Shown in pieces: positions 10,710-63,109 of a stretch of DNA of 64,000 nucleotides (position 1 is its first letter; each line of letters begins with the position of its first letter). Location of the stretch: positions 32,596-96,595 of IMG/VR virus record IMGVR_UViG_3300020000_000011. One strand, 5' to 3'. The translations under genes and the position numbers were made by a program. The notes beneath the pieces were generated by a model. That model worked only from the letters and a program-made list of their open reading frames with translations, was not told the origin of the DNA and searched no databases. The stretch is from a virus.

Positions 10710-10811
10710 CCGTGTAACACCCCTGTGGTTGACTGATCCCGCTGGGACGTTGCCACATCCTGTACAACCCGCTATAGTTACTTCCAGACCCAGACAGAAA
10801 GACCCAGACCC

Positions 10812-11771
10812 ATGACCGACACATCCACCATCAACCTGCCCGATCTCGTCGGGCTGTTCTGGTCGCCGCTGGCCCACCAGGCCAACTTCTCCGACTTCAC
10901 CTCGACGTCAGCGGCGACCAGCACCGACGACCCGACCATCCCCGCCACGACCACGAGCGTCGTTGTCGAGCAGAAGGAATACCTGCGCCCGAACGGCCTC
11001 GTGTACCTGCCCCGCTCGCTGATGGTCAACGAGGTGAAGAAACAAGACGTCACCTTGGTGCGCGAGTCGATCGCCGCCGGACTCACCGTCCTGCTCTACG
11101 GCGAACCCGGCTGCGGCAAGACCGCCCTCGTCGAGGCAGCGTTCGGCGACGACCTGTACACCGTGCAGGGCACCGTCGAAACCGAGACGGCCGACTTCGT
11201 CGGTTCGTGGGTGCAGCAGCCTGACGGCACCTACCTGTGGGTCGACGGCCCGCTGATCCGTGCGGCCGAGGAAGGCAAGAAACTGCTGGTCGACGAGATC
11301 GCTCTGATCGACTCCCGCGTCATGGCCGTCGTCTACGGCATGATGGACGGCCGAGGCGAACTCGTCGTCACCCAGAACCCGCTGCGCGGCTCCGTGAAGG
11401 CCAAGGAAGGCTTCGCCGTCATCGGCGCCTGCAACCCGAACGTGCCCGGCGCCCAGATGTCCGACGCGCTGCTGTCCCGCTTCGTGATCCACGTCGAGAT
11501 GGGCACCGACTGGGGCCTGGCCACCAAGCTGGGCTGCGGATCGAAGATCATCCAGGTGACCCGCAACCTCGTCGAGAAGTACGGCCGGGGCGAGATGACC
11601 CAGGCCCCGCAGTTGCGTGAACTGCTCCAGTTCCGCGACGTGTCCGCCACCTTCGGCGAGACGTTCGCCCTCCGCAACTTCATCTCCCAGGTGCGTCCCG
11701 AGAACAGGGCGATCGCACAGGCAGCCGTCGAGGCCGTGTTCGGCAACAATGTCGCCCCGCTCACGGTGTGA
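10812..11771 (+). CDS. MoxR-type AAA+ ATPase (CbbQ/NirQ/CobS-like)
   Basis: Walker A GEPGCGKT, WVDGPL, Walker B LLVDE, ACNP, DALLSRF. Confidence 0.9.
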   Translation: MTDTSTINLPDLVGLFWSPLAHQANFSDFTSTSAATSTDDPTIPATTTSVVVEQKEYLRPNGLVYLPRSLMVNEVKKQDVTLVRESIAAGLTVLLYGEPGCGKTALVEAAFGDDLYTVQGTVETETADFVGSWVQQPDGTYLWVDGPLIRAAEEGKKLLVDEIALIDSRVMAVVYGMMDGRGELVVTQNPLRGSVKAKEGFAVIGACNPNVPGAQMSDALLSRFVIHVEMGTDWGLATKLGCGSKIIQVTRNLVEKYGRGEMTQAPQLRELLQFRDVSATFGETFALRNFISQVRPENRAIAQAAVEAVFGNNVAPLTV

Positions 11772-11824
11772 CCCGACAGATACCCCGCTATACTCCACTC
11801 CAGACCCAGACGAAAGGCAACACC

Positions 11825-12436
11825 ATGACCAGCACACCAGTCCCCAACTCACCCGGCCCCACGATCGGCACCCTGATCCGAGGCGACGTCACGATCCACG
11901 CCCGCGACGGAGCAGCCAACACGCTGCTGCTCGACAAGCTGGCAGCGATCCCGCACTGCTCCGGCTTCGTCCAGAAGGCCCGCACCGGTGAAGGCACCGG
12001 CGTCGTCGGCCTGTACATGGAAGCGGTCGTGTTCACCGCCGCCGGGGCGCCGTTCGCCCACCTCCGGTTCTTCGTCATCGACCGCCACATCTACGTGTAC
12101 AACCGCTCGGCCGGTGACACCCGGGCCAACTGGCGGATCCGCACCGAGCAGTCGCTGGCCCACGCGCTGATGGTCGTCCACGAGGCGTTGAACCGCCCGA
12201 ACGTGCGCCTCTTCGGTCACCCTGTGGTGGTCGAGTTGACCGCCGACGACCTGTCCGCCGTCGAGTCCGGCGCGATGCCACCGGCCCGGTTCCGTGGCGC
12301 CTACCGGATCGAGCGCGACTTCGGCCGCTACGACTTCGTGATGGACGTCGTGTCGAAGCCGCTCCCGGCGAAGATGGAGAAGCTGCTGTCTGATCCGTCG
12401 TGGATCGTTCCGGCCGTCACGCCCGTCTCGGTGTAG
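11825..12436 (+). CDS. hypothetical protein in MoxR-VWA cassette
   Basis: RBS GAAAGG; own promoter cassette. Confidence 0.7.
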   Translation: MTSTPVPNSPGPTIGTLIRGDVTIHARDGAANTLLLDKLAAIPHCSGFVQKARTGEGTGVVGLYMEAVVFTAAGAPFAHLRFFVIDRHIYVYNRSAGDTRANWRIRTEQSLAHALMVVHEALNRPNVRLFGHPVVVELTADDLSAVESGAMPPARFRGAYRIERDFGRYDFVMDVVSKPLPAKMEKLLSDPSWIVPAVTPVSV

Positions 12437-12478
12437 AACCCGCTATACTGACTCCAGACCTAGACGAAAGCCGATCCG

Positions 12479-14434
12479 ATGCCCCGACAAACCATCCTCC
12501 ACAACCTGCACTCCACCAACTCCAGGCTGATGGAACGCTCCGCCGACCTGAACGCTCTCTCGTTCGTCGGCACGATCGCCGGGCCAGGCAAGTACCCGCT
12601 GGCCCGCTACGTCGACAACGGTGACCTGCCGAACCCGCCAGCACCGGCGTGGTACCTGCCCGACACCGGCGACATCTACATCCACGTCGACGACGCCAAG
12701 GTCGGCAGCCCCGAACGGATCCTGGCAGCCGACATCCACAGCACCAGCCTGATATCGAACAAGCAGGCCCGCATCCTCGGCCTGCTGGCCCACGAAGCCG
12801 CACACGCCGGGATCTCCGACCGGATCACGGTCATCGAGAAGCTGGCCCCGCACCACCAGTCGCTGCTCACCGCGCTGGAAGAACTCCGAGTCGAGAACCA
12901 CGCAGTGCGTACCGCACCGCCGGTCCGCCGGTTCCTGCGGGCATCGTTCGGTCTGATCCTGGCCAACCTGCCCGACACGTTTGAGAACAACTCGCACGTC
13001 GTCCGAGCATGGATGCTGGCCCGAGGCCGGACCCTGGCCGGGGTCGCCGCACCCGACGAAACCGACGCCGTCGACACCGCCGCACGAACGCTGCTCGGTG
13101 ACGAGATCATCGACGCACTAACCGACCTGTTGCAGGAAGCGTTGACGCTGCGGCTCGACTCAGAGACGTCCCGCGCTGCGCTGCTGCGAATCTGTGACGA
13201 GTGGGTCGCACTGGTCGGCGAACCTGCCGAGTCGACAAGCTGCACCGGTTGCGCCCGACGGGCACGACCCGGCGAGAAGCCCGACGTCATCGCCGAACCA
13301 TCCACCGGCAAGGGCGAAGGCGACGACGAAGAGGGCGACGAGGGCGCAGGCTCCGGTTCCGGCGACGGCGACGAGCACTACGACGGCGACGACTTCGAAT
13401 CCGACTACGGCACCCCCGGCCAGGACGACCCGGCCGACGACTCCGATCTCGCCCACCTCGACGACGAACTACTCGACGACGAAGATGCCGAACTGCTGAA
13501 GATGCTGATGCGCGAAGTCGCCGAGACGATGGACGACGACTGGAAGAAAGACACCGACATGGTGCAACTCTCCAACGCCGCCGAGTGGGGCGCCAAGATC
13601 TTCGGCAACCGACGCAAGTCGCAGCGAGTCATCGCCAGCCAGCCGACGGCGAAAGCCCGCCAGCACGTCGTCGAGGTCGCCACGGTGCTGTCCAGCCTCG
13701 CTCTGCCCTCGATCACCAAGCAGGCCCGCCCACAGCAGGCGCCCCCAGGCCGCATGCGGTCACGAGAGGCCCTCAGAGCGTCCGCTGAGCGTGCCCAGGG
13801 CAAGATGATGACCGCCAAGCCGTGGAAGGCCACAGTGCGCCGCCACACGTCAGCCAAGCCCCTCGTGGTCGGTGTCGCCACCGACACGTCCGGCTCGATG
13901 AAATGGGCCGAGTCCGGTGTCGCCGAGTTCGCCTACGTCTACGCCAACGCCGGGCACCGCATCGGCGCCCGCACCGCCGCGGTCACCTTCGGTGATCACG
14001 TCCACCGCATCGCCCGCCCCGGCGAAGTCCTCAACGAGGTACTGACCAAGACCGCCAACGACGGCACCGAAGAGTTCGACCAGGCAATGGCGGCACTCGA
14101 CGGGGTCCTCCACCTGACCACGCCGGGCACCTCAGCACGAATCCTGATCGTCGTCTCCGACGCCCAGTACGTGAAGTCCAACGAGGCCGAGCGTGCCTAC
14201 CGCTGGGTGCAGGCGATGATCAAGGCCGGGACGCACATCGTGTGGATCACCGACCGCTCACAGAACATCGCCAGCGGCTCGTACACCCACTGGGTCCGCA
14301 AGGCGATGCTGCTCCCCGGCTTCACGCTGGTCGGCGCGTTCGACGGGGCCACCGACCGGTACACCCGCTCACACGTCGGAGTGTTCGACAAGCTGAACGA
14401 GGTCGCCCTCGCAGCGATCCGCGGCGCCGACTAG
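12479..14434 (+). CDS. CobT-like VWA domain protein with HExxH motif
   Basis: AHEAAH...LEELRVE, acidic linker, MIDAS DTSGSM, IVVSDA. Confidence 0.85.
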   Translation: MPRQTILHNLHSTNSRLMERSADLNALSFVGTIAGPGKYPLARYVDNGDLPNPPAPAWYLPDTGDIYIHVDDAKVGSPERILAADIHSTSLISNKQARILGLLAHEAAHAGISDRITVIEKLAPHHQSLLTALEELRVENHAVRTAPPVRRFLRASFGLILANLPDTFENNSHVVRAWMLARGRTLAGVAAPDETDAVDTAARTLLGDEIIDALTDLLQEALTLRLDSETSRAALLRICDEWVALVGEPAESTSCTGCARRARPGEKPDVIAEPSTGKGEGDDEEGDEGAGSGSGDGDEHYDGDDFESDYGTPGQDDPADDSDLAHLDDELLDDEDAELLKMLMREVAETMDDDWKKDTDMVQLSNAAEWGAKIFGNRRKSQRVIASQPTAKARQHVVEVATVLSSLALPSITKQARPQQAPPGRMRSREALRASAERAQGKMMTAKPWKATVRRHTSAKPLVVGVATDTSGSMKWAESGVAEFAYVYANAGHRIGARTAAVTFGDHVHRIARPGEVLNEVLTKTANDGTEEFDQAMAALDGVLHLTTPGTSARILIVVSDAQYVKSNEAERAYRWVQAMIKAGTHIVWITDRSQNIASGSYTHWVRKAMLLPGFTLVGAFDGATDRYTRSHVGVFDKLNEVALAAIRGAD

Positions 14435-14595: not shown

Positions 14596-14804
14596 CTGTC
14601 CAAGAGGGCGTTGCCCAACTCGTCCAGCTTCTGGTCGATCTTGTCCTGAATGGTCTGGACGCGCTGGCGAGCATCGTCGGCCAACTCGGCCAGCTTCGGC
14701 CCCACCTCGGCCTTGATCTCGGTGACCGCTTGCTTGATCTCATCGACGAGATTGCTGAGTCGGGAGTTGTCCTCTGTGGGTGTGTCTGGGTTGGTGTCTG
14801 TCAT
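14592..14804 (-). CDS. small coiled-coil protein
   Basis: TACCGT 7 nt before the ATG; heptad-like sequence. Confidence 0.6.
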   Translation of the reverse strand: MTDTNPDTPTEDNSRLSNLVDEIKQAVTEIKAEVGPKLAELADDARQRVQTIQDKIDQKLDELGNALLDR

Positions 14805-14834
14805 GGGCGCGACGGTAGCCCATAGTCTGAGCGT

Positions 14835-15242: not shown

Positions 15243-15286
15243 CCCGGTTCCCGTTGGTGGAGGTGGCCGCGGACTAGCCTCGGTCC

Positions 15287-18089: not shown

Positions 18090-19613
18090 ATGACCACGAT
18101 CGCTCCTGACGTCGACATCGACGACATGAGCATCATCGAACAGATCGCGCTGCTCGACGACGACGAACGCGACCGGTTGATCGGCGACTTCGACGAGCAC
18201 GATCTCCACGACCCGGAACTGTGGCTCCGGCCGTCGCAGCTACGAGCACTGCATGACGTCGCTGCGATCGTGGCGATGCTCGCCGGGCGTGGCGCTGGCA
18301 AGACCCGTGTCGGTGCCTCGTGGTCGATCGAGAAAGCCGAAGCGGAACCCGGCTCGATCGGTCACCTCGTCGGGCGGACCGTGTCCGACTGTCGTGACGT
18401 CATGATCCAAGGCGAGTCGGGGATCCTCGCCCTGTCCCGGCCGGACTTCATGCCGACGTACACGCCGTCGCTGCGCCGGTTGGACTGGCCCAACGGCTCG
18501 CACGCGTTGACGTTCTCGTCGGAGGAACCGTCGCAGTTGCGTGGCCCGCAGTCGAACTGGACGTGGGTCGACGAGATGGCCGCGCTCAACCACCGGCCGG
18601 ACAACTCGGGGGCGACCGCCTGGGACCACGTCCGCATCGGTACCCGCCTCGGGCCGCACCCGCAGATCTTCGTGACGACGACACCGAAGCGGATCAAGGC
18701 GATCAAGGACCTCGTCGCTGAAGGCCGGACCACCCGGCGTGTGTCGCTGCACGGGGCCTCGACGTTGGCGAACCGGGCGCACCTGTCGGCCGACTACCTG
18801 CGGAACCTGTTCGACATGTACGCCGGGACCGCGCTGGAGCGCCAGGAGTTGGGTGGCGAACTGCTCGACATCGTCGAGACGGCCCTGTGGCAACCCGACG
18901 ACATTGTTATAGCGGACCATACCTTTCTGGAACGGTTCGTCGGAGTCGACACCCTGTCGGTGATCGGTGTTGACCCGGGCCTGACGACCGGCGGTGACGC
19001 CACCGGGATCGTCGTCACCCGCTCCACCCTGGAACTCGGGCTGACAACCCGGCGGGCGCTCGTCGTTGCCGACTGGACCGAAGACGGGCTGCAACCAGAA
19101 CGGTGGGCCGCTCGTGTCGTCGAGGCGTGGCGCACCGAACACGACCTGACCGGGAACGTGCCGATCATCGTCGCCGAGAAGAACGCCGGTGGCGAGATGA
19201 TCGCCACCACCATCGAAGGTGTCGCCGGAGAGAACGCGCTGCCGATCGCTCTCGTCCCGGCGTCACGTTCGAAGGCTGCTCGTGCCGAACCGATCGTGCT
19301 CGCCTACCGCCAAGGGCGCGTCCGCCACATCGAGGACTTCGTCGAGATGCAAGAGGAAATGACCGGCTGGGAACCACCGGTGCCCGGCGTGTCGAAAGGC
19401 TCCGGCTGGTCGCCGAACAAGATGGACGCGCTGGTCACGGCGTTGCGCGCCCAGCTTGTCGACGACAAGCCGTTGCGCCGGTTCGGCCGGTTGGACGCTC
19501 AGGAGACGTCCGAAGTGCTCCACGTCGAAGAGGCCCGCTGGCGTCGCGGCATCAAGCCGCTCGGGCACATGCCGTGGCGCCAAGAGGCAGAAGACATCGA
19601 CCCGCCGTACTGA
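18090..19613 (+). CDS. terL: terminase large subunit
   Basis: AGRGAGKT, LRGPQ..WVDE, TTTP, nuclease IGVDP...DATGIVV, AEKNAGG, SPNKMDAL. Confidence 0.95.
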   Translation: MTTIAPDVDIDDMSIIEQIALLDDDERDRLIGDFDEHDLHDPELWLRPSQLRALHDVAAIVAMLAGRGAGKTRVGASWSIEKAEAEPGSIGHLVGRTVSDCRDVMIQGESGILALSRPDFMPTYTPSLRRLDWPNGSHALTFSSEEPSQLRGPQSNWTWVDEMAALNHRPDNSGATAWDHVRIGTRLGPHPQIFVTTTPKRIKAIKDLVAEGRTTRRVSLHGASTLANRAHLSADYLRNLFDMYAGTALERQELGGELLDIVETALWQPDDIVIADHTFLERFVGVDTLSVIGVDPGLTTGGDATGIVVTRSTLELGLTTRRALVVADWTEDGLQPERWAARVVEAWRTEHDLTGNVPIIVAEKNAGGEMIATTIEGVAGENALPIALVPASRSKAARAEPIVLAYRQGRVRHIEDFVEMQEEMTGWEPPVPGVSKGSGWSPNKMDALVTALRAQLVDDKPLRRFGRLDAQETSEVLHVEEARWRRGIKPLGHMPWRQEAEDIDPPY

Positions 19614-21253: not shown

Positions 21254-21293
21254 GGTTGTGGCACCTACCGTACACGGTGCTATACTTCAGACC

Positions 21294-22826
21294 ATGACCG
21301 AGACACAGACTCCCCCGCCCGCCTGCGAGAAGTGCGGCGATACCGGCACCATCCCACCCTTCATGGACGCCTGCACCTGCGGCGCGATGCCCACCAGCTA
21401 CGCACCCGAGTTCCCGGCACCCAGCGTTGTCGAGGCCGGAGCCGCGATGGACGCCTGGGACGCCGAGCACCCCGAGGTCCGCCCCATGATCCCTGGCACG
21501 ACGATCCCGACGCCCGGCTTCCCCGCCCACCCGGCCACCGGCCAGGTTCACCACCACGACAACGGCAGCGCCTACATCTTCACCGGCGCCACCTGGAACG
21601 TGATCCCGTCCGGCTTCCCGCTCGACCCGAAGGTCGGCGAGATCTCGTGGAACATGGGCAAGGCGTACGCCTGGGACGGCTCGACGTGGCGCCAGTTCGA
21701 CACCGAGGCCCTGACCTACGAGCAGTTCCACGCCCGCTACGGCCCCGACGCCGTGCTGCCCGAGGCCGAGGTCGAGCGCGAAGCCGACGACGCTGCGCTG
21801 TTCGCCCGCCGTGCTGCCGAGATGGAAGCCGAAGAGAACACGGCGACATGGGGCGACATCGACGGCGGCACCCCCGAGTCCTCGTCGACCTGGTCCGGTG
21901 GCGCAACGTGGGGTGCGCCCGCAGCCGACGACAAGGTCACCGCTGCCGGACCCGAGATCGAGTGGGCCGACGTCCACGGTGTCGCCGAGGAAACCGACGG
22001 CGAGTACGTGACGACCACCGCCACCATCGCCGAAACCGTCGCAGCCGTCGTCGCCGCTCACCCACCGACCGGTGTGAAGCTGGCCTCGGCTCCGCAAGGT
22101 GCGCTGCTGGCCCGCCTGATCGCCGAACGCGACCCGGCCAACATCCTCGTCCAAGCCGCCAAGAGCGAATGCACCGGCCCGCCGATGACCGCCAAGCGGG
22201 CCTCGCAACTGATCGACGCCCTCGTCAAGCTGCCCTCCACGAAGCCGCCGGTCCGACCGAACAAGTACCCGGGCGCGTGCGTCAAGTGCAGCGGCGAAGT
22301 TGCCGCCGGGGCCGGACGCATCGAGAAGGACTCCAGCACCGGCCGCTGGAAGACCTACCACCTCACCGGTAGCGACTGCATCACCGACGCCGAGAAGGCC
22401 AAGCTGGAGATCGACCGAGTCGACGAGCCGGGCCTGTACAGCTACATCACCGGCGACATCTACCGAGTTCGTCACGCCCGCGGTTCGAAGCGGCTGTACG
22501 GCGAGAAGGTCGTCACCTACGAACGCCACAACCCCGACGGGACCTCCTACACCGAAGTCCGGTTCGTCTACAACGGCAACGCGATGCGGTTTCTCCGCAA
22601 GGTCGACAAGCTGACGTGGGCCGAGGCCCGCGACTTCGGCAAGGCGTACGGCGCCTGCGTGGCATGCGGCCGGACCCTCAACGATCCCCGCTCCCTCGTC
22701 CAGTCGTACGGTCCGACGTGCGCCAAGAAATACCACTGGCCGACCGTCACGCTGAAGCAGGCCGAGGCGATCATCGCCGGGACCGTCACCTGGGAAGAGG
22801 TCACCGGGGCGCTGACCGTCCTGTAG
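21294..22826 (+). CDS. multidomain Zn-binding protein with C-terminal DUF6011-like domain
   Basis: CEKC, RPNKYPGACVKC, YGACVACGRTLNDPRS...YGPTCAKK; leaderless TATACT. Confidence 0.7.
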   Translation: MTETQTPPPACEKCGDTGTIPPFMDACTCGAMPTSYAPEFPAPSVVEAGAAMDAWDAEHPEVRPMIPGTTIPTPGFPAHPATGQVHHHDNGSAYIFTGATWNVIPSGFPLDPKVGEISWNMGKAYAWDGSTWRQFDTEALTYEQFHARYGPDAVLPEAEVEREADDAALFARRAAEMEAEENTATWGDIDGGTPESSSTWSGGATWGAPAADDKVTAAGPEIEWADVHGVAEETDGEYVTTTATIAETVAAVVAAHPPTGVKLASAPQGALLARLIAERDPANILVQAAKSECTGPPMTAKRASQLIDALVKLPSTKPPVRPNKYPGACVKCSGEVAAGAGRIEKDSSTGRWKTYHLTGSDCITDAEKAKLEIDRVDEPGLYSYITGDIYRVRHARGSKRLYGEKVVTYERHNPDGTSYTEVRFVYNGNAMRFLRKVDKLTWAEARDFGKAYGACVACGRTLNDPRSLVQSYGPTCAKKYHWPTVTLKQAEAIIAGTVTWEEVTGALTVL

Positions 22827-39611: not shown

Positions 39612-39612
39612 A

Positions 39613-39912
39613 TCACTTGGCGTTGAGGATCCGTACGAGGCGCTTCAGTCGTTCGTCCTCGATCACCAGTTCACGGATCTCGTCGTTGATCTGAGCACGG
39701 GAGTCGCGCAGTGTCGCCAACTGAACGGTGACTCGTTCGGCTGCCCGGCGGATCGCTACCGCGGCTTCGTCGAGCGGGGTCGGTGACAACATCGGCGGCT
39801 CCACGTCGAGGGCGTCCTCGTCGCTGTGGTGCTGCCATCCCTGGTCGGGTGGCTGGACAACACCGAGCAGGGAGGTGGGATCGTCTGGTATCAGGTCTGG
39901 GGTCGTGGTCAT
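39613..39912 (-). CDS. hypothetical coiled-coil protein
   Basis: TAGGGT 7 nt before the ATG. Confidence 0.55.
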   Translation of the reverse strand: MTTTPDLIPDDPTSLLGVVQPPDQGWQHHSDEDALDVEPPMLSPTPLDEAAVAIRRAAERVTVQLATLRDSRAQINDEIRELVIEDERLKRLVRILNAK

Positions 39913-40039
39913 CTTGTATACCCTAGTACGTCTGCTACGGTACCGACCGAGACAAAGACGCAGACCCGGACTCCGACGTAGACGAACCCAATGGTCCACC
40001 CAGAGATGGGGTCTACGTCGTGAACCCAGGAGCACCCAC

Positions 40040-40384
40040 ATGGTCAAGTCGTTCAAGGGTTTCGTGCCCTCCGAAACCGTCACGTTCGAACTTCAGTCGC
40101 CAGACGGAACCAACACCGTCACGTTCCGCTGCAAGCCCAACGTCCCCGGTTCGAAGTTCTTGGAGTACATGGAACGGGCCGAGTCCGTGCAGGACTTCGG
40201 TGCGATGGCCAAGGCTGTGCGCGACATCATCAACACCGCGCTCACCCCTGAATCGGCGAAAGAGTTCTGGGCGTTCGCCGACAACGAAGTCAACGGCATC
40301 AGTCTCGACACGCTCTCGGAGATCTCCGGGTGGCTCGCAGAGACGTTCGCTGGTAACCGCCCTACGGTGCCTCAACCAGCCTGA
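40040..40384 (+). CDS. tail assembly chaperone (G)
   Basis: Upstream of tape measure; RBS CAGGAG; ends ...GNRPT. Confidence 0.75.
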   Translation: MVKSFKGFVPSETVTFELQSPDGTNTVTFRCKPNVPGSKFLEYMERAESVQDFGAMAKAVRDIINTALTPESAKEFWAFADNEVNGISLDTLSEISGWLAETFAGNRPTVPQPA

Positions 40385-43600: not shown

Positions 43601-44577
43601 TGTTCGCGTCGGTCAACGAGTTCTTCATGGGCATGCCCCAAGCCCTGCTCGACCTCGTCCTCGCCGGTGCCCCGATCGTCGCCTCGATCGGGTCGAGCGT
43701 CATCCAGTGGATCCTCGACGCGATCACCACCGCAGCCACCACCGTGTGGGACTGGTTCACCGGGCTGCCGCAAGCCCTCTGGGATCTCGTCAGTGGCGCC
43801 TCGCAGAAGATCATCGACATCGGTAGCGACGCCATCGGCTGGATCGTCAGCGGCCTCGTGTCCGTCGCCCAGGACGTGTGGAACTGGTTCCTCGACTTCC
43901 CGCAGGCGGCGTGGGACACCGTCAGTGGGATCTCGCAGAAGATCATGGACATCGGCCTCGACGCCATCGGTTGGATCCTCGACGGCATCCACGACGCCGA
44001 GGTCGACCTGTGGACCTGGTTCACCGAACTCCCCGGCGTCGTATGGCAGAAAGTACAGGACGTCTCACAGAAGGTCATCGACATCGGCAAGGACATGATC
44101 GGCTGGATCGTCGAAGGCTTGGAGGGGTTGGCCTCCACCCTGTGGACGACGTTGACCGAGGCGCTGCCGTCGCCGTCGGATGTGATGGGGGCGATCAAGG
44201 GGATCTTCACCTCGGCGATCAACCTGCTGCCCGATCTCACCCCCGGCTTCGATGTGCCCGGCGTCCCGTTCTTCGAAATGGGTGGCATCATCCCGGGTTC
44301 GGCGTTGGGCATGCCGGTGATCGTCGGTGAACGGTTCAAGTCGGAAGCGATCGTGCCGATGGAACGTCCCGGCCGTGCGCTGGCCGTGATGCAACAGGCG
44401 GGCCTCGACAAGATGGTCCTCAACGCCTACATGGGTTCATCCACTGACGCACCGGCCGGTGTCGCCGGGCGCGACGTCACCATGTTGCACATCGACCGGG
44501 CCACGATCACCGCTCCAGTCGACGCCGACATGATCGTCCAGAAGATCGCCACCGCATACAGGAGAATGGCGTCATGA
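40690..44577 (+). CDS. tape measure protein
   Basis: 1295 aa, helical, periodic Trp/Phe repeats; N-terminal VGTAYVII. Confidence 0.95.
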   Translation: MALSDVGTAYVIIKANTEQLAGDIGKGFKKGAADADDDIAKSGSEGGKSYKKGMLGEIGDGEIGDGVTESLNTPEINKNSEKAGANVSRRVKKGHDKENKKHNPFASLGDSLGQVFSGMAKLKWPAILLAAPDVLGGLANIIGASLAGITEALGFLVEAAAGAGAALVGIGVVAIPALAVLFAAFKVSTDELDSFKEAAKPLIGQWKNVAVAVQKKVLPAMLGFLETSQLLIPMWVEFGDHIGTIAGNFLTMAGNVLTSNKNLDAFATIMENSEKFFGLISESLLVVFDALIPVFAILAPLGVQFAESLRKMADHLAEFLAQPGKLDELSVKFQDWYDKLAQVFRIIGNVFTALWEILGVGAEFGTSMFDSLEKVTGKWAEWTQSIEGQTALQDWFAKSQPLMHEIWLLIKDIADIVIGPIIDVDSQQGTIDFVHTLRTDWLPTFKDIFDALGNAGVGEALQTLADALVDFINSFSGSSTIVATIDTFAKVIEGFAKVLSDPLVAEVAPTLAAIYGGLAVFKFLKLDNLAKDVFAVGSGFLNLGKGLFATGEGVAAAKAAGGLQSLGATLAPIAGPLLAVAAAIAAIWAVWHFWDEIMAGLKTAWEWFTKLSTPIQILVGILAGMTAIIMAPLLGFIGLIFGVIAVFKNWEAIAGFVDRVWDAIFNFFTGLPDLIGKLPGLLGGVGLSILNFFEGVGESILGFLGRLPGIIGGALLGALTAIPGLVMDALSGLANVGLGILQWIADGIVTAAPVVAQFFTELPIKILGWVGQAFSALTGLGTNILQWIIEGLVEWLPKVLVFFIKMPFEILTLLRKANVEMVKIGWRILMWMIDGLVEAWPSILDFFKKLPRRIIDALEAAGKFLLSVGRSIIDGMWQGIQTAWDIGLDFFKKLPRRILDALINSAMWLRDVGSGIINGMWQGIQSSWDAGLEFFTGLPARIMGYFTSTIDWLKQVGGDLIQGLWNGIQEVFASVNEFFMGMPQALLDLVLAGAPIVASIGSSVIQWILDAITTAATTVWDWFTGLPQALWDLVSGASQKIIDIGSDAIGWIVSGLVSVAQDVWNWFLDFPQAAWDTVSGISQKIMDIGLDAIGWILDGIHDAEVDLWTWFTELPGVVWQKVQDVSQKVIDIGKDMIGWIVEGLEGLASTLWTTLTEALPSPSDVMGAIKGIFTSAINLLPDLTPGFDVPGVPFFEMGGIIPGSALGMPVIVGERFKSEAIVPMERPGRALAVMQQAGLDKMVLNAYMGSSTDAPAGVAGRDVTMLHIDRATITAPVDADMIVQKIATAYRRMAS

Positions 44578-47734: not shown

Positions 47735-47789
47735 TCTGCATAACGCGCTGTAGACTGCCTGGCCTAGACACAGACTTGGAGACGACGAG

Positions 47790-48299
47790 ATGACAACACA
47801 GACCACCGGCTACTACGAGGTACGCGACGGGGCGACCCGAGTCCTCCAATTCGGTGGCCAGCTTCTCGCCGAGGTGTCATCGAGGCGTACTGGCGCGCCA
47901 CGCTGGACCGAGCTACGCCTGTACAAGACCGAAGCCGGTGCGTACGTGATGGAGAAGATCGGCGCATCCGTCGTCGTTCACGCACCGTCGTGCCCGGACA
48001 TCAAGCCGCCGCTGCCACGCTTCCAAGAGATGCACCCCGGCGACGACCCGGCCGATGGGAACTGGTGGTTCTGTGAACGGTGCGGCGACGTCGCCGTGCG
48101 TGACATCACCACGCTGCTCATCGAGGCGAACCGCTACTGGGCGTTGATCTCCGAGGACCCGGCGCAGATCGTCGACTCGTTGTACCGGCGCAAGGACGGG
48201 GCACGGTCGATGCCGAGGATGTCGCTCGACTTACTGGACGAGGCATCCAGAAACGACCCGGCGATCTTGGAGTCGTTCAAGTCAGAGTTCGTGCTCTGA
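47790..48299 (+). CDS. hypothetical phage protein
   Basis: LQFGG.LLAE.SS...RWTELRLYKT..G.YV; RBS GGAG. Confidence 0.7.
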   Translation: MTTQTTGYYEVRDGATRVLQFGGQLLAEVSSRRTGAPRWTELRLYKTEAGAYVMEKIGASVVVHAPSCPDIKPPLPRFQEMHPGDDPADGNWWFCERCGDVAVRDITTLLIEANRYWALISEDPAQIVDSLYRRKDGARSMPRMSLDLLDEASRNDPAILESFKSEFVL

Positions 48300-48912: not shown

Positions 48913-49557
48913 TCAGTCCGCGCCGACCGTGTCGTCGGCGGGTTCCTCGGGGGCGTCGCTCTCGATGATCTCCAGGTACGCCTCGACTTGGTTCAGCCAC
49001 TCGGCGTCTTCGAACAGGGCCTTGCCGGACAACCGGCGATCCTCACGTTCGGCGAACGACTTCATCTCCAGCTTCTGCTTGTCGGACAGTTCCGTCAACC
49101 GTCGCAGGACGTCGTCGACACGACCGGCCCGCGGGTTCTCTTCCGCCGTCGCCGCTCCAGTGTCGACCGATCCGGCGCGCCCGTCGTCGTCTTCTGTCGC
49201 CAGGCCGAGGATCGACAACAGGGCATACCGGCGGGCGAAGCTGATCGCCGAACCGACGCCTTGCGGGGTGGATCCGGCCGGGCGGATCAACAGCGGGGGG
49301 AACTCGATGTACTGGCCCGAGGTGTGCCACAACACGGTGGCGACACCGTCCATCGTGGGGACCTGCGTCAGGGCGAGATCGTTCTCTTTCAGGTGCGGGC
49401 GGATCGCATCCAGCACGACGTTGAGTGGGGCGTACGAGTAGCTGTACTTGTCCATCTCTGCGGTCGCGGTGCGGGGGATGTCGTCCATCGCGTTAAGCGC
49501 GGCGACGAACGCCGGGACGACTTTGTCGAACGGTTCGGATGCTTCGAATGAGGCCAT
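48913..49557 (-). CDS. ERF-family single-strand annealing protein
   Basis: YSYAPL...LWHTSGQ...PQGVGSAISFARRYAL..ILGLATEDDDG. Confidence 0.9.
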   Translation of the reverse strand: MASFEASEPFDKVVPAFVAALNAMDDIPRTATAEMDKYSYSYAPLNVVLDAIRPHLKENDLALTQVPTMDGVATVLWHTSGQYIEFPPLLIRPAGSTPQGVGSAISFARRYALLSILGLATEDDDGRAGSVDTGAATAEENPRAGRVDDVLRRLTELSDKQKLEMKSFAEREDRRLSGKALFEDAEWLNQVEAYLEIIESDAPEEPADDTVGAD

Positions 49558-50086
49558 CAGGTGCCTGCTTTCTGGGTCTGGGTCACGGAGCACAGTATAA
49601 CTGGCTACACTCGGAAACTTTCTTTCCCAGATCGTTTACATCGGCCGGTCGAACGTCGCTTCGTAGAAGTGTGAACGAAGACATGCAACTACTCAGGTCC
49701 TTGCCGATGCCAACCCAGAAGGCGCTGCTGCGCGACTGGGTCGAACGGAGGCGGCTCGGGACGCTCCGCGGTGAGGGCCTCGCCTCCCACGCCGGGTACA
49801 TCAACATGATCGCCCAAGAGCAGGGGGTCACCATCGACGAGATCCTGGCGCTCGACTGGTACCCCGTCTGATCCCGACCAGGCGTCGACGATGTCCTCAT
49901 CGCTCTCTTCGCCGTCGCCGTAGTCGTAGCCGTGGGCGCGCCACCACTCGACCAGATCGAAGACCATGCCGTAGGTGACGAGCGGCAACCAGAACAGGAT
50001 CGTCACCGACCGTTGGATCCCGTTGCCGTCCAATGCCCATGCGAAGCCGATCCCGGCCCACAGGTAGATGATGACCAGCGCGACGA

Positions 50087-52747: not shown

Positions 52748-53707
52748 CTAGGGGCGTTCGCCGAGCAGGCGAGCGGTTTCGGCGAGCGCATCCGCCATCG
52801 ACCGTTCCTCAGCCGTAACAGGCTCTGTAGGCCCGTCTGCCGTTTCCGGGGGTACTGGTGCCGCCGGACGGGGGGTTCGACCGCCAGAGAGGTGCTGTAG
52901 CGGTTGTGGTGGCTCTCCCAGCACCAACGTCCGGCCGTAATCGTCGTCGGTGAGCCGTCCGCCGAGAGCATCCAGGCTGGCCCTGGTGAGCCGCTGGTCC
53001 CCACCGAACACGTTGAGGACCTTCACGAACGAGCATTCCCAGCCCCCATCGCGGTTCTGGTGGCCGTGGTCACGGATCGCCGCCTCCGCCCTGCCGGGGT
53101 CACCGATGGCCTTGTCGCCGATGTTGCGGCCGGTCGCCTCCCGGTAGGCGTCGTTCATCAGCGCCTGCCCTTCGGCCCACGACACGGTCCGCTGCCTCGG
53201 GTCGTCGTCGTGGCGGGTGTCCAGCTTGCACGCCGGGGGCCTCGTCCAGTCCTTGGGGACCTCCACGAGGTGTTCCAGTTCGGTGCCGTCGAGGTACTTC
53301 TCCCAGTTGTCGGGGTTGCGGAACACTTCGTCCAGCTTCGGGTTGCACCGCGGGCACGGCCGCAACCATCCCGGTTCGCCGCCGGTGTCGGGGATCCAGC
53401 CGGTCCCACCGCACCACGGAGTCGCGGGCGCCGCCAGCCGGGCAGCCACGGCGCGTTCCTCGCGCTGCTCGCGCACCGCCGGATGCTCGTGGTACGCCGT
53501 CAGGATCTGGTGCATCGACGGGCGCAGCTTCCCGGTCCACGTGCGCGACATCTCCCGGCAGACGTCGTTCAGCGCGTCGCCGTCGTCGGTCCCGTCGCGC
53601 AACTGCTCGACGAACTTGGTCAACACCACCTCGTCGTCGAAGCTGAACCCGGGGATGCCAGCGATGAGCAGCCCGGCTGCCGCGTATGCCTGGTCCGTTG
53701 TTGTCAT
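52748..53707 (-). CDS. replication-associated protein (helicase loader-like N-terminus, Zn finger)
   Basis: Coupled downstream of the initiator; WCGGTGW...PCPRC. Confidence 0.5.
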   Translation of the reverse strand: MTTTDQAYAAAGLLIAGIPGFSFDDEVVLTKFVEQLRDGTDDGDALNDVCREMSRTWTGKLRPSMHQILTAYHEHPAVREQREERAVAARLAAPATPWCGGTGWIPDTGGEPGWLRPCPRCNPKLDEVFRNPDNWEKYLDGTELEHLVEVPKDWTRPPACKLDTRHDDDPRQRTVSWAEGQALMNDAYREATGRNIGDKAIGDPGRAEAAIRDHGHQNRDGGWECSFVKVLNVFGGDQRLTRASLDALGGRLTDDDYGRTLVLGEPPQPLQHLSGGRTPRPAAPVPPETADGPTEPVTAEERSMADALAETARLLGERP

Positions 53708-54468
53708 CGTGCTTCCGCCTTCGTCTCGGTCTTGGTCTTGTCGTCTGCTGCGAGTGCGGCGCGCACCCGTTCCATCTTGCCCATCGGCTTCACGACGGTG
53801 AGCGGCGTCGCCGATCTCGGTTCGTCGTCTTCCCACCGCCGCTGGTTGAGCCACACGTTACCGGCCGGGATGAACGTCAGATCGGTTTCGTTCGTGGCCC
53901 ACCAGGCGGCGTGGCGCTCGATCCCGGTGAACGCATCGCGCCGGTCCGCCGCGCGCATCGTCCGCCACTTGGTTCGGGCCTGGCCCTTGCCCGTCGCTTT
54001 CTTCGGGTACAACGCCCACCATCGGTCAAACGCCTCATCCACCAAGGAAGACGAAGTCTTCCTACTCTCGTTGTTCTTGCTCTCGTTGTCTTGCTCTCTC
54101 TCGTGGTGCACCGGTGCACCCACCCTGGGTGCATCCGTGCTCCCACCCCTGGGTGCATCCGTGCACCCACTGGGTGCAGATTCGATCCGTTCGTCACCGG
54201 CGAGGTGGTACCGATTCGGAAGCTGCGCTCCGTTCTCGGACCTCGCTTCGACGTACACGGCACCGACTTCGACGAGTCGGTGGAGTGATCGTTTGACGGT
54301 GTCGGCCGACTTGCTGATCTTCTCGGCGATCGTCTGCTGGGAGGGTCTGATGTCGTTGCCGTAGCGGGCGAGCACGCCGTAGACGCGGACGTCGTCGCCG
54401 GTCAGGCCGGGGTGGTACAGGATCCACTCGGGGATCGCTGCGAACTTGTAGCCGAGAACGACGCTCAT
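53704..54468 (-). CDS. phage replication initiator (N-terminal HTH)
   Basis: FAAIPEWI...VYG.LAR...PSQQTIAE...N.Y; FDRWW..YPKK..K..A...FIP...WLNQRRWED. Confidence 0.85.
   Translation of the reverse strand: MSVVLGYKFAAIPEWILYHPGLTGDDVRVYGVLARYGNDIRPSQQTIAEKISKSADTVKRSLHRLVEVGAVYVEARSENGAQLPNRYHLAGDERIESAPSGCTDAPRGGSTDAPRVGAPVHHEREQDNESKNNESRKTSSSLVDEAFDRWWALYPKKATGKGQARTKWRTMRAADRRDAFTGIERHAAWWATNETDLTFIPAGNVWLNQRRWEDDEPRSATPLTVVKPMGKMERVRAALAADDKTKTETKAEAR
54061..54179 (-). repeat. iterons / putative replication origin within initiator gene
   Basis: CCCTGGGTGCATCCGTGC twice plus further GGTGCA copies; adjacent strand-skewed tract 54061-54100. Confidence 0.7.
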
Positions 54469-54594: not shown

Positions 54595-54924
54595 CTACCG
54601 CTCTGACACTCGCCGCCCGGCCAGCATCCGCACGATCCTCGCGGTGTCCCGTTCCGCCTGCTCCGTCTCGGCGATCGTCCAGCCCTGCTCCAACAGTTGC
54701 GCCCGCACCGACGGCAACATCCCGGCGCTGGCGATCTCTTCGGTGTCACCGGCGCAGTACAGGCAGATGACGTCGCAGATCTCCTGAGCGCCGAGGGATC
54801 CTTCGGATCTCCACAACGGCGCCCGGCATTCCATGCACTCGGCCATGATCGACGGGACGTTGGCGATGGGCATGTCGGCGATTCTCACGCAGACGAGTAC
54901 GGCGGGTTCCTGGTTCTCGGTCAT
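54595..54924 (-). CDS. Zn-finger hypothetical protein
   Basis: CMEC...CLYC; TATAGT 6 nt before the ATG. Confidence 0.6.
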   Translation of the reverse strand: MTENQEPAVLVCVRIADMPIANVPSIMAECMECRAPLWRSEGSLGAQEICDVICLYCAGDTEEIASAGMLPSVRAQLLEQGWTIAETEQAERDTARIVRMLAGRRVSER

Positions 54925-55021
54925 CCGGCGACTATAACCCGGTACGCGAAAGAGCGCCGGGTGGTTCACGGTCCACCCGGCGCTCTTTCATGCTGTTCCG
55001 TCCCGAACAGCGATCTGTTGG

Positions 55022-58916: not shown

Positions 58917-58960
58917 CCAGGCACGTTGTCATTCCGCAGATACCGTGGTATACTGTTGTC

Positions 58961-59203
58961 ATGACCGAGACACCAGACATCACATCCACCCCCCTCGACT
59001 GGGTCGGCAAGACCCTCACCTGGGACGGCAACAAGCGGTTCCACATCGAAGCGGTCGAACCGTGCAACGAGTGGTACTACCGAATGACCGGCGCCAACCC
59101 GAAGATCCCCCGCTGGAACGTTCGCTGCCGCCCGATCCGCCCCAACCGCCCACTCGGCGCCATCCGCGAGTTCGCCCTCACCGCCGACGCGCTGGTCGCC
59201 TGA
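58961..59203 (+). CDS. hypothetical protein
   Basis: TATACT 6 nt before the ATG. Confidence 0.6.
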   Translation: MTETPDITSTPLDWVGKTLTWDGNKRFHIEAVEPCNEWYYRMTGANPKIPRWNVRCRPIRPNRPLGAIREFALTADALVA

Positions 59204-59469: not shown

Positions 59470-59678
59470 ACACCACTCTCACCGGCCCACAGCAAGCACT
59501 GCTGGAACGAGTCCGCAGCGAAGGCACCGTCGTCCAGAACGGCCGTGCCCGGCGCACCGTTCAAGCACTCGTCGACCGCGGCCTCGTCGTCTCCGAGTAC
59601 GACCTGATCCCCCATGCCATCGGATCGTGGACCGAAAGATTCACACTCACGTTGGCTCCCAACGATAGCGAGGTATAG
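59466..59678 (+). CDS. small winged-helix-like protein
   Basis: LTGPQQALL...RTVQALVDRGLV. Confidence 0.55.
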   Translation: MNTTLTGPQQALLERVRSEGTVVQNGRARRTVQALVDRGLVVSEYDLIPHAIGSWTERFTLTLAPNDSEV

Positions 59679-59686
59679 TTACCGCC

Positions 59687-59863
59687 ATGACACAGACACC
59701 AGACACAGACAAGACCTACAAGATCATCCGGTTCTACCAAGACGCCGACTCCGAGATCATCACCCGCGGCCAAACGCTGGCACAGGCCCAAGCGCACTGC
59801 CAACGTGAGGACACCCACGGCGAAGGCTGGTTCGACGGCTACGACGTGGACGAGCAGTCATGA
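59687..59863 (+). CDS. small conserved phage protein
   Basis: YKIIRFY...G.TL.QAQAHC...WFDGY; leaderless TATAGT. Confidence 0.6.
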   Translation: MTQTPDTDKTYKIIRFYQDADSEIITRGQTLAQAQAHCQREDTHGEGWFDGYDVDEQS

Positions 59864-60405: not shown

Positions 60406-60553
60406 CGTACCGATCCATCATGGTCCTCGTCGAGATCGACGACACCGTCTCCCAAGGCGACGAGTTCGAAACGCTGATGGCCGACGTCCAGAACTGCGTC
60501 GAGATGTTCCACGACCCGGCCATCAAGCGGACCAAGGTCACGGAGATCACGTC

Positions 60554-60838
60554 ATGAGGTGCGCGTACTCAGCGATCGACGACTCGATCGTGCTGACCTA
60601 CTCCAACCTCGACGACGGCGTGTGGCTGGAATGCGCCTGCGGCTGGACGACCAACCTCGGCTTCCGCGCCACCCCGCAGAAAGCGATGGAGGAAGTCGCA
60701 GCACACAAGGCGACGACCGCAGCCGATCAGATCTTGGAGATCGTCGCCGAGTTGTACGACTCTCCCGACAACGACCGCTACGGCTCGATCGTCGACCGGC
60801 TGATCGCCGCCGAAGACATCCGGCGGGCGACGTCATGA
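60554..60838 (+). CDS. hypothetical protein
   Basis: ATGA coupling; CACGW. Confidence 0.5.
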   Translation: MRCAYSAIDDSIVLTYSNLDDGVWLECACGWTTNLGFRATPQKAMEEVAAHKATTAADQILEIVAELYDSPDNDRYGSIVDRLIAAEDIRRATS

Positions 60839-61086
60839 GAGCGGCAACGCTCACCACCGCGAAGCGTGTCGCTGCGGCAACCGGGCAGACGTTCCTGTTC
60901 GGCATCCGCGCCAGTGGCAGCGTGTTCGTGCACTGCGACGGCATCGAAGTCGACGGCAACTGGGACGGCTCCGTCCCGGCGCTCGCCACCGAGATCTCGC
61001 AACGCCTGCTCTCCGAACGTAGCAAAGCAACCCAGGCGGTCACCGCGGCCGACAAGAAACTGCGCGTGCTGGACGGTGCGGAATGA
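60835..61086 (+). CDS. hypothetical protein
   Basis: ATGA coupling. Confidence 0.5.
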   Translation: MRAATLTTAKRVAAATGQTFLFGIRASGSVFVHCDGIEVDGNWDGSVPALATEISQRLLSERSKATQAVTAADKKLRVLDGAE

Positions 61087-62162
61087 CGACCGTGTCGCTC
61101 CCCGAGTGCCGCGGCCCACGCGACCTTCCCGAGGTCCGCGCCTGGCTCGCCAACCTGTACCGCCCCGAGTCGCGCTACACCGCAGCGATCGAACGAGGCG
61201 GACTGTCGACCGACTCCCGGTTCATCCGCGAGACACTGAACACCGCCCAACTGTGGTGGGTCACGAAAGAGACATGCGATCTGCTCGCCGCCTCCGCCCC
61301 GTCGATCCCCGACGACGTCGTCATGGACTGGAAAGACGTCCCGGTCCCGGCCGGGTTCGCCGTGTTCGACGAAGACCTGACCGGTTCCGATTCGTACACG
61401 GCCGGTGAACCGGTGCGTGTCTCGGCGATCATGTGGGGACCGGTCGAACTCCCACCGATCGGCGGCATGCGCCTCCCGCTCCCCGGCGGCAAGGTGCTCG
61501 CCGACAAACCGGGCCGCATCGGCCTCGGCATCGGGATGTGGACACGCGCCGATCTCGGTCAAGGGATCAACGGGAAAGAGATGGCGATCCACGCCGGGAC
61601 GTTCTCCGCGCTCGCCGACCACATGCCCCTGTTGTCCACCGGGACGCCCGGCTCAACTCACGTCATCAAGGGCAGCCTGTTCACCTACATCGGGCGGACC
61701 GACTGGCTCGACGGCCGACCGATCAACGAAGTCACCCCCGGCGCACCTCTCGGTAGCTACAACGCCCAGCAGTCGATGACCGAGGACCGCAAGCTGATCA
61801 CCGCCCTGTGGGCGATCACCCGCACCCCGATCGTCTCCCTCGTCCAAGAACACGTCCACCGGTCCACCGCCCGCCGCGCCAAGCGCAAGGGATTCGATCC
61901 TGCGGTGCGTGTGTTGACGCTCCACGGCCCGCGCCTCGACCAGGGTACCACCGAGGCCCACGGCACCGGCACGAGGGACTGGCAGCATTCCTGGGTCGTG
62001 TCGCCGCACTGGCGGTGGCAGCCGTTCGGCCCCGGCCGCACCCAACGCCGCCTGATCCTGATCGGCGCCTACAAGAAAGGCCCCGACGACAAACCGTTGC
62101 TCGGCGGCGAACGAGTCTGGCGTGTCGTCCCTCCGCACGGCGCACCGACGGTGGCGCAATGA
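61083..62162 (+). CDS. conserved phage hypothetical protein
   Basis: C-terminal WVVSPHWRWQPFGPGR..RRLI.I..Y.KGP motif. Confidence 0.7.
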   Translation: MTTVSLPECRGPRDLPEVRAWLANLYRPESRYTAAIERGGLSTDSRFIRETLNTAQLWWVTKETCDLLAASAPSIPDDVVMDWKDVPVPAGFAVFDEDLTGSDSYTAGEPVRVSAIMWGPVELPPIGGMRLPLPGGKVLADKPGRIGLGIGMWTRADLGQGINGKEMAIHAGTFSALADHMPLLSTGTPGSTHVIKGSLFTYIGRTDWLDGRPINEVTPGAPLGSYNAQQSMTEDRKLITALWAITRTPIVSLVQEHVHRSTARRAKRKGFDPAVRVLTLHGPRLDQGTTEAHGTGTRDWQHSWVVSPHWRWQPFGPGRTQRRLILIGAYKKGPDDKPLLGGERVWRVVPPHGAPTVAQ

Positions 62163-62371
62163 CCCCGCTGTTCGCCCTCCTGTACATCGCACTGGCCGTC
62201 ACGTTCGGTGGCTGGTGGTGGCTCGCTGCCGTGCTGATGACGATCGCGTGGGTCGGCGGCAAGATCGCCGACATCCGTCTCGCCTACTGGCAGGAACGCC
62301 TCCGCGAGGTTTCCTCTGATACTCCGATATACTCGCCCCAAGACCCAGACCAAGAAAGTTAGGAACCAACC

Positions 62372-63109
62372 ATGTGGATCATCTCCGACAAAGGCTTCGT
62401 GAGCCTCGTGCAACACGACACCGACCCTGAACTCATCCGAGCACGAGCACGGCGCAAAGCCCACCTGCTCGACACGTTCGACCTGACCGAAGACGAGATC
62501 ATCGACTACGGCCCGAACCCGCCGGACTACCGCTGGCACGCCAACGTTCCCCGTGAGGATGTCGCCGAGGCGATCTCCGACTCGATCATGAACATGTCGT
62601 ACACGTCGCACGTCAAAGAGTCCGTGTCCGGCAACGACCGCCAGATGTACCGGGCGATGATGTCGACCTGGAACGCGTTCTACGAACTGCAACGCCCGCC
62701 GCGCACCGACGGTGACTGGTGGACGAGCCGCTTCGAAGACATCGAAGACGACGACGCTGTTGGCCCCGACGAGTACGACCGAATGTTCCCATCGGCTCGC
62801 CAGGATCGTCTTGAAACGATCCTCGGCCGGGCACGCCAGGGCACGGGCCGCAACCGTGGCGGCATGCGCCGCAACCCACGGGACGGCGACGACTGGTGGC
62901 GGACACCGGCCAAGCCTCGCGACGACGGCAAGGCCGACAAGCCGTTGGAAGAGTTGACCGGCAGCCTCGCTGACCGCATGCTCCAGTCCGCCGGGCGCCT
63001 CGACCAGACGCCTCCCGCCACCGAACACGACGACCTGTTGGCTCCACCGCCGAAGAAGGCCGCGAAGAAGATCCCACCGCCACCGGCCACACCCAAGGCC
63101 AAGTCATGA
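62372..63109 (+). CDS. conserved phage hypothetical protein
   Basis: MWIISDKGFVSLV...RAR...DYRW; promoter/AGAC cassette upstream. Confidence 0.7.
   Translation: MWIISDKGFVSLVQHDTDPELIRARARRKAHLLDTFDLTEDEIIDYGPNPPDYRWHANVPREDVAEAISDSIMNMSYTSHVKESVSGNDRQMYRAMMSTWNAFYELQRPPRTDGDWWTSRFEDIEDDDAVGPDEYDRMFPSARQDRLETILGRARQGTGRNRGGMRRNPRDGDDWWRTPAKPRDDGKADKPLEELTGSLADRMLQSAGRLDQTPPATEHDDLLAPPPKKAAKKIPPPPATPKAKS

Follow-up and report, generated by a model that had tools for sequence, protein, structure and literature searches.

What purpose is served by the short AGAC repeats that recur at the 5′ ends of genes in an uncultured ~100-kb soil phage? The stretch analyzed here, referred to as the window, is 64,000 nucleotides (nt) long and covers positions 32596–96595 of the 96,595-bp IMG/VR virus record IMGVR_UViG_3300020000_000011, which has a GC content of 65% and an estimated completeness of 85%. 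A preliminary description of the window had noted the repeats just after −10 boxes, in leaders as well as within the first codons of leaderless genes, and every repeat string that it quoted was found in its place. We find that the repeats consist of phased (C/A)AGAC hexamers, and the reading that we favor, tentatively, is that they form an mRNA element of the translation-initiation region that may act as a ribosome landing pad or enhancer. Approximately 136 genes were called with a self-trained codon model (two starts, at window position 11768 and genome position 7795, were probably set too far upstream). Transcript starts are predictions throughout, and coordinates are those of the window unless stated otherwise.

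AGAC repeats are concentrated at gene starts

Clusters, defined as two or more AGAC with a gap of ≤5 nt, were counted on both strands of the 96.6-kb record. For 16 of the 19 clusters, a start codon on the same strand is no more than 40 nt away; another is located just past the promoter at 39936, 90 nt upstream of its gene, and the other two fall inside genes. Without exception the clusters are on the sense strand, in keeping with the strand preference reported in the preliminary description. Around all called starts, AGAC occurs 0.156 times per gene per 15 nt as compared with 0.040 in gene interiors (~4-fold), and the frequency of the complement GTCT is flat. The excess amounts to 8–17-fold at promoter-proximal genes of this phage and two relatives, and to 2–3-fold upstream of the start at other genes.

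The positional enrichment that had been proposed as a check was quantified for 31 predicted 5′ ends from this phage and two relatives, taking the first ~30 nt after the start. AGAC is the most enriched 4-mer in this set, with 54 occurrences against 2.4 expected from gene interiors (22-fold, P ~3e-52), and CAGAC is the top 5-mer (46-fold). Mononucleotide shuffles of the same sequences contain a mean of 7.5 AGAC with a maximum of 20 (n = 2000), and dinucleotide shuffles a mean of 26.4 with a maximum of 39 (n = 500). As the shuffles never reach 54, base composition, and hence simple avoidance of structure, is insufficient to account for the repeats. The preliminary description had weighed the possibility that AGAC density merely equals that expected from low-structure selection or codon bias; instead, it exceeds the shuffles, and the repeats also fill non-coding leaders.

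The unit is a hexamer in regular phase

The repeating unit is a hexamer, NN(A)GAC, usually (C/A)AGAC, of which each site contains two to seven copies; CCAGAC is the commonest unit in the leaders of this phage. A spacing of 5–7 nt had been given previously. The regularity holds, and the value can be refined to exactly 6 nt between GAC triplets in 36 of 57 successive pairs, the clearest non-coding array being seven GAC in perfect 6-nt phase at 39945–39981. In leaderless genes, the array occupies +3 to about +30 and, as claimed earlier, is read in more than one codon phase: all three occur among 62 GAC, with xxG-ACx dominant (45), followed by GAC (Asp) codons (12) and xGA-Cxx (5). The dominant phase yields Met-Thr-Glu/Gln/Lys-Thr peptides, and the peptides encoded by the repeats are as unlike as MTETQT, MTKTKT, VDSDPDIDQD, and MPDPEP. 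A peptide-level signal is ruled out by the non-coding copies and the multiple codon phases. The phasing of bare GAC was rejected as a descriptor because in-frame Asp codons yield many such arrays inside genes; AGAC/CAGAC is the discriminating word.

The first 32 nt of the 5′ ends are composed of 32% A, 37% C, 21% G, and 10% U, with a G in every unit. For the 31 transcripts, the first 40 nt have a predicted mean minimum free energy of −3.4 kcal/mol, and several fold to 0 kcal/mol, as compared with −8.6 kcal/mol at internal starts, −10.7 kcal/mol in gene interiors, and −5.4 kcal/mol for their own shuffles (P = 0.0015). The exception is the long leader at 39943–40045, where the last GAC units can pair with a downstream GUCUAC stretch (a modest z-score of −1.85). 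A hairpin of ~13 bp is predicted in this tail-operon leader (39970–40015, +), which is the sole place where anti-AGAC sequence was seen.

Position relative to promoters and Shine-Dalgarno sites

Only 17 TATAnT hexamers are present in the whole record, and 15 of them precede genes as host-type promoters, most with TTGNNN 16–18 nt upstream. In ten promoters an ATG or GTG follows the hexamer by 6–7 nt, so these ten messages should be leaderless; the remaining TATAnT promoters have a leader of 25–35 nt downstream. Weaker −10 boxes (TACGGT, TAGACT, TAGTGT, TACCGT, and TAGGGT) serve the other sites that had been listed previously. The first GAC begins 9–10 nt past the −10 hexamer in 18 of the 31 promoters, and within this phage leadered and leaderless messages share one register. 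The co-occurrence with the TATA motif noted in the preliminary description is borne out, in that every strong TATAnT promoter of this phage leads into an AGAC/GAC element, although some copies are degenerate. The suggestion that the repeats may define one regulon proved too narrow: essentially every recognizable host-type promoter carries the motif, and the promoters that do so include those of the tail operon, recombination (ERF), replication, and genes without known function.

The repeats are also not confined to the first ~30 transcribed nt, as had been supposed, since copies precede the Shine-Dalgarno sites of promoterless, operon-internal genes. Five AGAC pairs are located within 45 nt before genes that overlap or abut an upstream gene, against 0.25 expected, and four of these five have no TAnnnT box within 30 nt. 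In all leadered cases, both here and in the relatives, the array adjoins the Shine-Dalgarno site (AGAAAG, GAAAGG, or AGGAG), while its distance from the −10 box varies from 6 to 38 nt (8 to 38 nt in the relatives); in several instances from the relatives, the array comes after an intergenic hairpin and not after a −10 box. The promoterless copies and the adjacency to Shine-Dalgarno sites and start codons point to a link with the start of translation more than with promoter escape or the loading of an antitermination factor. No AGAC array was found upstream of tRNA genes, as would be expected of an element that serves translation; the tRNA-Gly/tRNA-Glu pair at 4216–4460 (−) is preceded neither by a recognizable TATAnT promoter nor by an array.

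Conservation in related phages and occurrence in bacteria

The same arrangement is present in a contig that encodes a 64% identical ATPase (G001) and in another with a 63% identical capsid protein (G002), and an exact-pattern scan of IMG/VR recovered further family members; the family contigs compared are fragments. A portal-profile scan revealed that the motif persists in phages at 38–46% portal identity. Several distant relatives carry AGAC repeats immediately 5′ of an AGGAG-type ribosome-binding site (RBS) or past leaderless starts, with promoter flanks that differ (e.g., GTG-TATAAT). Orthologous leaders keep GAC while the spacer letters change, as seen for the gene at 62372 in three phages and for that at 40040 in two; for the latter, a hand count of this phage against its relative gives matches at 18/21 nt in GAC positions and 10/21 in spacers. 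Clusters near same-strand starts make up 59 of 108 in the family as compared with 2 of 25 in ten unrelated high-GC viral contigs. The use of one word in non-coding leaders and in three codon phases, and the retention of GAC in diverging spacers, support the earlier proposal of a signal at the nucleic acid level.

Among 185,579 species genomes, the exact pattern of promoter and leaderless start occurs 13 times, a number close to that expected by chance, and one of these matches is a related phage contig binned in a Thermomicrobiales metagenome-assembled genome (MAG). Triple AGAC arrays show no obvious excess over a reversed-word control in 121 genomes of the class of a Solirubrobacterales MAG (presumably Thermoleophilia), and most of 14 inspected bacterial arrays are in-frame Thr-Gln linkers inside open reading frames (ORFs) and not at gene 5′ ends (L085, L086, L088–L090, L097). 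Over 400 kb of the Solirubrobacterales MAG, an AGAC pair near the start was found in 3 of 359 genes, as compared with about 12–23% of phage genes. The motif is not general in these candidate bacterial groups, and the true host may be another. A portal search of 301 and 401 genomes sampled from the phyla of the Thermomicrobiales MAG and of an Actinomycetota MAG returned one weak match. The only hints to the host are the related 20-kb contig in the Thermomicrobiales MAG (L059) and a portal homologue named from a Gaiellaceae MAG (P0060); both are distant relatives of this phage on short contigs, and they point to different phyla. A blastn comparison of one promoter-leader with cultured phages gave only chance matches of 19–24 nt, and a literature search for the literal repeat strings returned only primers and microsatellites.

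A candidate translation-initiation element

Across sites, the constant pattern is adjacency to a fresh ribosome-binding place together with almost no predicted structure. From this anatomy and from the conservation of the sites, we infer that the initiating ribosome, or one of its proteins, may be the reader of the element and that the effect would be more initiation. The array would offer the ribosome a structure-free, sequence-specific landing pad wherever it starts from scratch. In short leaders the pad would separate the 5′ end from the Shine-Dalgarno site, and in leaderless messages it would come just past the 5′-terminal start codon. First genes of transcription units would need the array most, because they inherit no ribosomes from an upstream gene, and this need would explain the pile-up of repeats at 5′ ends. 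Persistence of the unchanged word at 38–46% portal identity, within differing promoter flanks, fits a slowly evolving reader such as the ribosome.

Several features weigh against this assignment. Unstructuredness alone permits any A/C-rich sequence and leaves the invariant GAC at exact 6-nt spacing unexplained, and the commonest unit, CCAGAC, contains no ACA. The motif is rare at starts in the Solirubrobacterales MAG (the 3/359 genes mentioned above), whereas a general ribosomal enhancer might appear in host genes. In most promoters the first GAC lies 8–10 nt past the −10 box, as a promoter-level role also predicts. The precedent of C/A-rich enhancers (see below) accounts neither for the exactness of triplet and phase nor for the fact that the motif appears restricted to phages, and these features keep a dedicated reader, phage-encoded or phage-modified, as a strong rival.

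In this main alternative, a dedicated RNA-binding factor may read GAC triplets at 6-nt spacing. Such a factor would be encoded by the phage and possibly delivered with the virion. As an oligomer or ring that reads phased triplets in the manner of TRAP, it would control translation, stability, or read-through, in effect tagging phage mRNAs as 'self'. In favor of this reading are the strict triplet and the strict phase of 6 nt, which 2 to 7 units keep while their spacers vary freely, the restriction of the motif to the sense strand, its presence at essentially all phage transcription units, and its density, which in these phages far exceeds that in the bacterial genomes tested. However, ~40 proteins compared with Pfam and/or PHROGs yielded no RNA-binding domain in a scan that was not exhaustive and in which most phage proteins were without a match. 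Between distant phages, the sites of phage-specific proteins usually drift, whereas this word has stayed the same where portals are only ~40% identical; many sites, moreover, hold two units only. It is rather doubtful that the phased GAC array constitutes a 'self' tag in the full sense, read by a phage-encoded (possibly injected) oligomeric RNA-binding protein or by a phage-modified ribosome. Such a tag would keep phage mRNAs translated or stabilized while the many toxin-like effectors of the phage shut host expression down.

We regard as unlikely an element that operates on DNA or during transcription initiation, whether as an initially transcribed sequence that tunes start choice and promoter escape or as a +1 to +20 operator for a phage repressor or activator. 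The invariable association of strong TATAnT promoters with the element would be accounted for, as would the register of the first GAC shared by leadered and leaderless forms and the phased copy between the −10 box and the ATG at the 21281 site. Nevertheless, copies occur without a nearby promoter, and the arrays of relatives, which can be as far as 38 nt from the −10 box, track the RBS instead. The fixed register of leaderless genes follows automatically from an ATG at +1 plus a Thr codon. Moreover, a 6-bp repeat sets successive sites on nearly opposite faces of the helix, an unusual arrangement for tandem DNA-binding proteins.

The chance that the repeats are a by-product without a function of their own, arising from N-terminal Thr/Asp/Gln/Glu codon preference, structure avoidance, or recent duplication of one promoter cassette, appears very small. 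The dominance of the xxG-ACx phase in leaderless genes (45/62 GAC, Met-Thr-(Gln/Glu/Lys)-Thr) would be expected on this basis, AGAC in such peptides is not removable by synonymous choice, and there is clear paralogy among some cassettes, one promoter-leader region sharing 77% identity over 89 nt with a second copy in the genome. Nevertheless, non-coding leaders are filled with the same word, it is also read in other codon phases that give unrelated peptides, and its frequency is two-fold above that of dinucleotide shuffles. It is kept in diverged orthologous leaders and in the phages at 38–46% portal identity, and near-start clusters are scarce in unrelated high-GC phage contigs (2/25, as against 59/108 in the family). 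The non-coding copies in particular largely refute a by-product.

Pairing with the 3′ tail of 16S rRNA would let the repeat adjacent to the Shine-Dalgarno site add AGA to the complementarity but leaves upstream units and leaderless copies without a partner. As for a complementary phage small RNA, no GTCT-rich cluster was seen on any sense strand. A Rho loading site, an RNA methylation motif, and a 5′-end decay signal are without specific support.

Relation to known systems

Leadered and leaderless mRNAs alike are translated more strongly when CA repeats follow the start codon (Martin-Farmer and Janssen, 1999, cited in PMC9031893), and ACA motifs act as enhancers shortly 5′ of the Shine-Dalgarno site, with tolerance for their exact position (PMC3879156). 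With these C/A-rich enterobacterial enhancers the element shares the form of short, repeated, A/C-rich, unstructured mRNA words, the U- and G-poor make-up, the position-tolerant placement either before the Shine-Dalgarno site or after the start codon, and the presence on leadered and leaderless messages. It differs from them in that the invariant word is GAC/AGAC and not CA or ACA, in its exact 6-nt period, and in its genome-wide use by a phage clade without excess in the bacterial genomes sampled.

The start-associated sequence (SAS) of Cluster K mycobacteriophages is a 13-nt asymmetric word that contains the Shine-Dalgarno core and is situated 3–7 nt from the start codon (PMC3203893). Like the element described here, it is present in multiple copies of one orientation at the starts of non-adjacent genes, is conserved in its clade and rare in host or bacterial genomes, and has been assigned no reader, a role in translation initiation having been proposed (PMC3203893). 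By contrast, the present element is a tandem hexamer array of different sequence that lies outside the Shine-Dalgarno site, also extends into leaderless coding starts, and is mostly promoter-proximal. TRAP sites in the Bacillus trp leader RNA consist of 9–11 repeats of phased (G/U)AG triplets with spacers of 2–3 nt. An invariant triplet, short free spacers, and a location in single-stranded RNA near the 5′ end and RBS are common to both, whereas the triplet here is GAC, the repeats number 2–7, and no TRAP-like or ring protein was identified among the ~40 proteins scanned.

The stoperators of Cluster A mycobacteriophages, the sites of the L5 repressor, are single 13-nt DNA sites at which the immunity repressor blocks elongation. 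These stoperators, also mentioned in PMC3203893, resemble the element as many oriented copies of a short asymmetric site that are dispersed over a phage genome and aligned with transcription but are neither tandem hexamers nor tied to start codons or promoters. The leaders differ from lambda-type antitermination sites (nut, put) in that they are predicted to be unstructured, without a defined hairpin, and an Rfam search of the window returned no family besides tRNAs. By analogy, the element would function like a C/A-rich enhancer without being one by sequence, behave in the genome like the SAS, and possess a TRAP-type geometry without a known protein.

To our knowledge, little is known of what beyond a 5′-terminal AUG makes leaderless messages translate well, and how short leaders recruit ribosomes in high-GC organisms is likewise unclear to us. 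Leadered and leaderless messages both carry the element, one short word in exact 6-nt phase, and a genome has roughly 20 such sites. A large clade of uncultured ~100-kb soil phages has conserved it, with natural variation that already shows which letters matter. If the ribosome reads it, the element could provide a portable expression element for high-GC hosts; if a phage factor does, it would represent a new mode of phage control over mRNA use. With a 'self' tag, if real, viral mRNAs would be told apart from host mRNAs by a sequence code, a form of discrimination new to bacteria.

Individual sites

Among the leadered sites on the plus strand, that at 10750–10814 consists of TTGCCA, a 17-nt spacer, and TATAGT, followed by AGAC at 10786, 10792, 10800, and 10806, which flank the AGAAAG RBS of the MoxR-like AAA ATPase gene (ATG 10812). 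TATACT boxes precede leaders with AGAC at 11802 and 11808 abutting GAAAGG (ATG 11825; 11789–11827), at 12456 and 12462 abutting GAAAG (ATG 12479 of a 651-amino-acid protein; 12444–12481), and at 62341 and 62347, followed by AAGAAAG and AGGA (ATG 62372; 62328–62374). An extended −10 box, TGTAGACT, leads into AGAC at 47766, 47772, and 47780 upstream of the ATG at 47790 (47751–47792).

The seven-unit array at 39945–39981 is located in the non-coding leader of a promoter with a TTGTAT −35 box and a TACGGT −10 box (39936–40042, +), and the ATG at 40040 opens the first gene of the tail chaperone/tape-measure operon. The preliminary description had listed this array for the 40040 gene; it does stand directly after its own promoter but about 75–95 nt upstream of that ATG. 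On the minus strand, a −10-like TAGGGT is followed by the leaderless ATG at 39912 and by AGAC at 39898 and 39886 (39883–39925). The two promoters are thus arranged back to back and divergently (39883–39983), with 24 bp between the minus-strand start and the plus-strand box at 39936–39941, and both lead into AGAC repeats on their own sense strand.

Leaderless genes on the plus strand include that at 10269, where TTGTGA and TATACT are 16 nt apart and GAC occurs at 10271, 10277, and 10283 (MTKTKT; 10235–10286), and the DUF6011 gene at 21294, where a TATACT box is followed by GAC at 21290, 21296, 21302, and 21308 (MTETQT; 21281–21311); all four GAC of the latter are in 6-nt phase through the ATG, and one of them falls between the −10 box and the ATG. 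TTGTCA, a 17-nt spacer, and TATACT precede the ATG at 58961, with GAC at 58963, 58969, and 58976 (58926–58979). Five GAC at 59689–59713, in two codon phases (MTQTPDTDKT), follow the ATG at 59687, which is preceded by TTGGCT, a 16-nt spacer, and TATAGT (59652–59716). A degenerate copy with GAC at 3652 and 3664 and without AGAC follows the leaderless GTG at 3650, downstream of TTGCGA, 16 nt, and TATACT (3616–3666).

Leaderless starts on the minus strand comprise the ATG at 1431, with a TAGTGT box at 1443–1438 and AGAC at 1422 and 1417 (1414–1443), which opens a 74-amino-acid ORF (1207–1431) that reads the pair in another codon phase, as Arg-Gln-Asp. The ATG at 14804 has a −10-like TACCGT at 14817–14812 and AGAC at 14799 and 14787 (14784–14817), and that at 54924, downstream of TATAGT, is followed by a degenerate copy consisting of GAC, then GAA and GAA (54907–54936).

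Upstream of ERF (49555–49599, −), a TATACT box is followed by a GTG at 49586, GAC at 49584 and 49578, and then AGAAAG before the ERF ATG at 49557. This region could be a plain leader or a leaderless 9-codon mini-ORF that starts from the GTG 7 nt past the −10 box; its TGA overlaps the ERF ATG (TGATG), an overlap that suggests translational coupling from a leaderless upstream ORF. Two minus-strand sites have no −10 box upstream. At 1210–1230, an AGAC pair (1230 and 1224) is followed immediately by AAGGGG, which resembles a Shine-Dalgarno site, and by the ATG at 1210; this gene is the second in its unit, ~200 nt past the predicted start. At 53705–53746, four AGAC (53746, 53738, 53732, and 53726) are located inside the 3′ end of the replication-initiator ORF, followed by GAAGG and a coupled ATG at 53707.

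A second conserved word, G(A)TAC or GTACA, is present in promoter spacers ~10–11 bp upstream of the TATACT box (10762–10778, 11778–11794, 21270–21286, 58938–58954, and 62317–62333, as well as other promoters). Together with the box it forms an ATAC...ATAC direct repeat one helical turn apart, perhaps serving as an operator or as an overlapping second −10 box. A module made up of promoter, leader, and start occurs twice, genome positions 7794–7885 and window positions 11767–11855 being 77% identical over 89 nt, so that some copies of the element are paralogous cassettes.

Gene content of the window

No megablast match among cultured phages was obtained for 24 kb of the window, and a tblastn search with a 616-amino-acid protein gave only short C-terminal domain matches (Rhodobacter and Dinoroseobacter phages). 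Family searches identified the major head protein (7141–9132), the major tail protein, a MuF-like head protein, the MoxR-like AAA ATPase (10812–11771), the large terminase (18090–19613), the DUF6011 protein (21294–22826), the portal (37998–39611), ERF (49557–48913, −), and the replication initiator (54468–53704, −). A 1295-amino-acid ORF (40690–44577) is a putative tape-measure protein by its size and position, and Dit comes next. The order of the structural genes (7141–44577) is unusual, with the capsid and major tail genes at 7–10 kb and the terminase at 18 kb, followed by a long run of fibre-like genes. The portal at 38 kb adjoins the tape-measure operon, and several AGAC promoters are interleaved among the structural genes.

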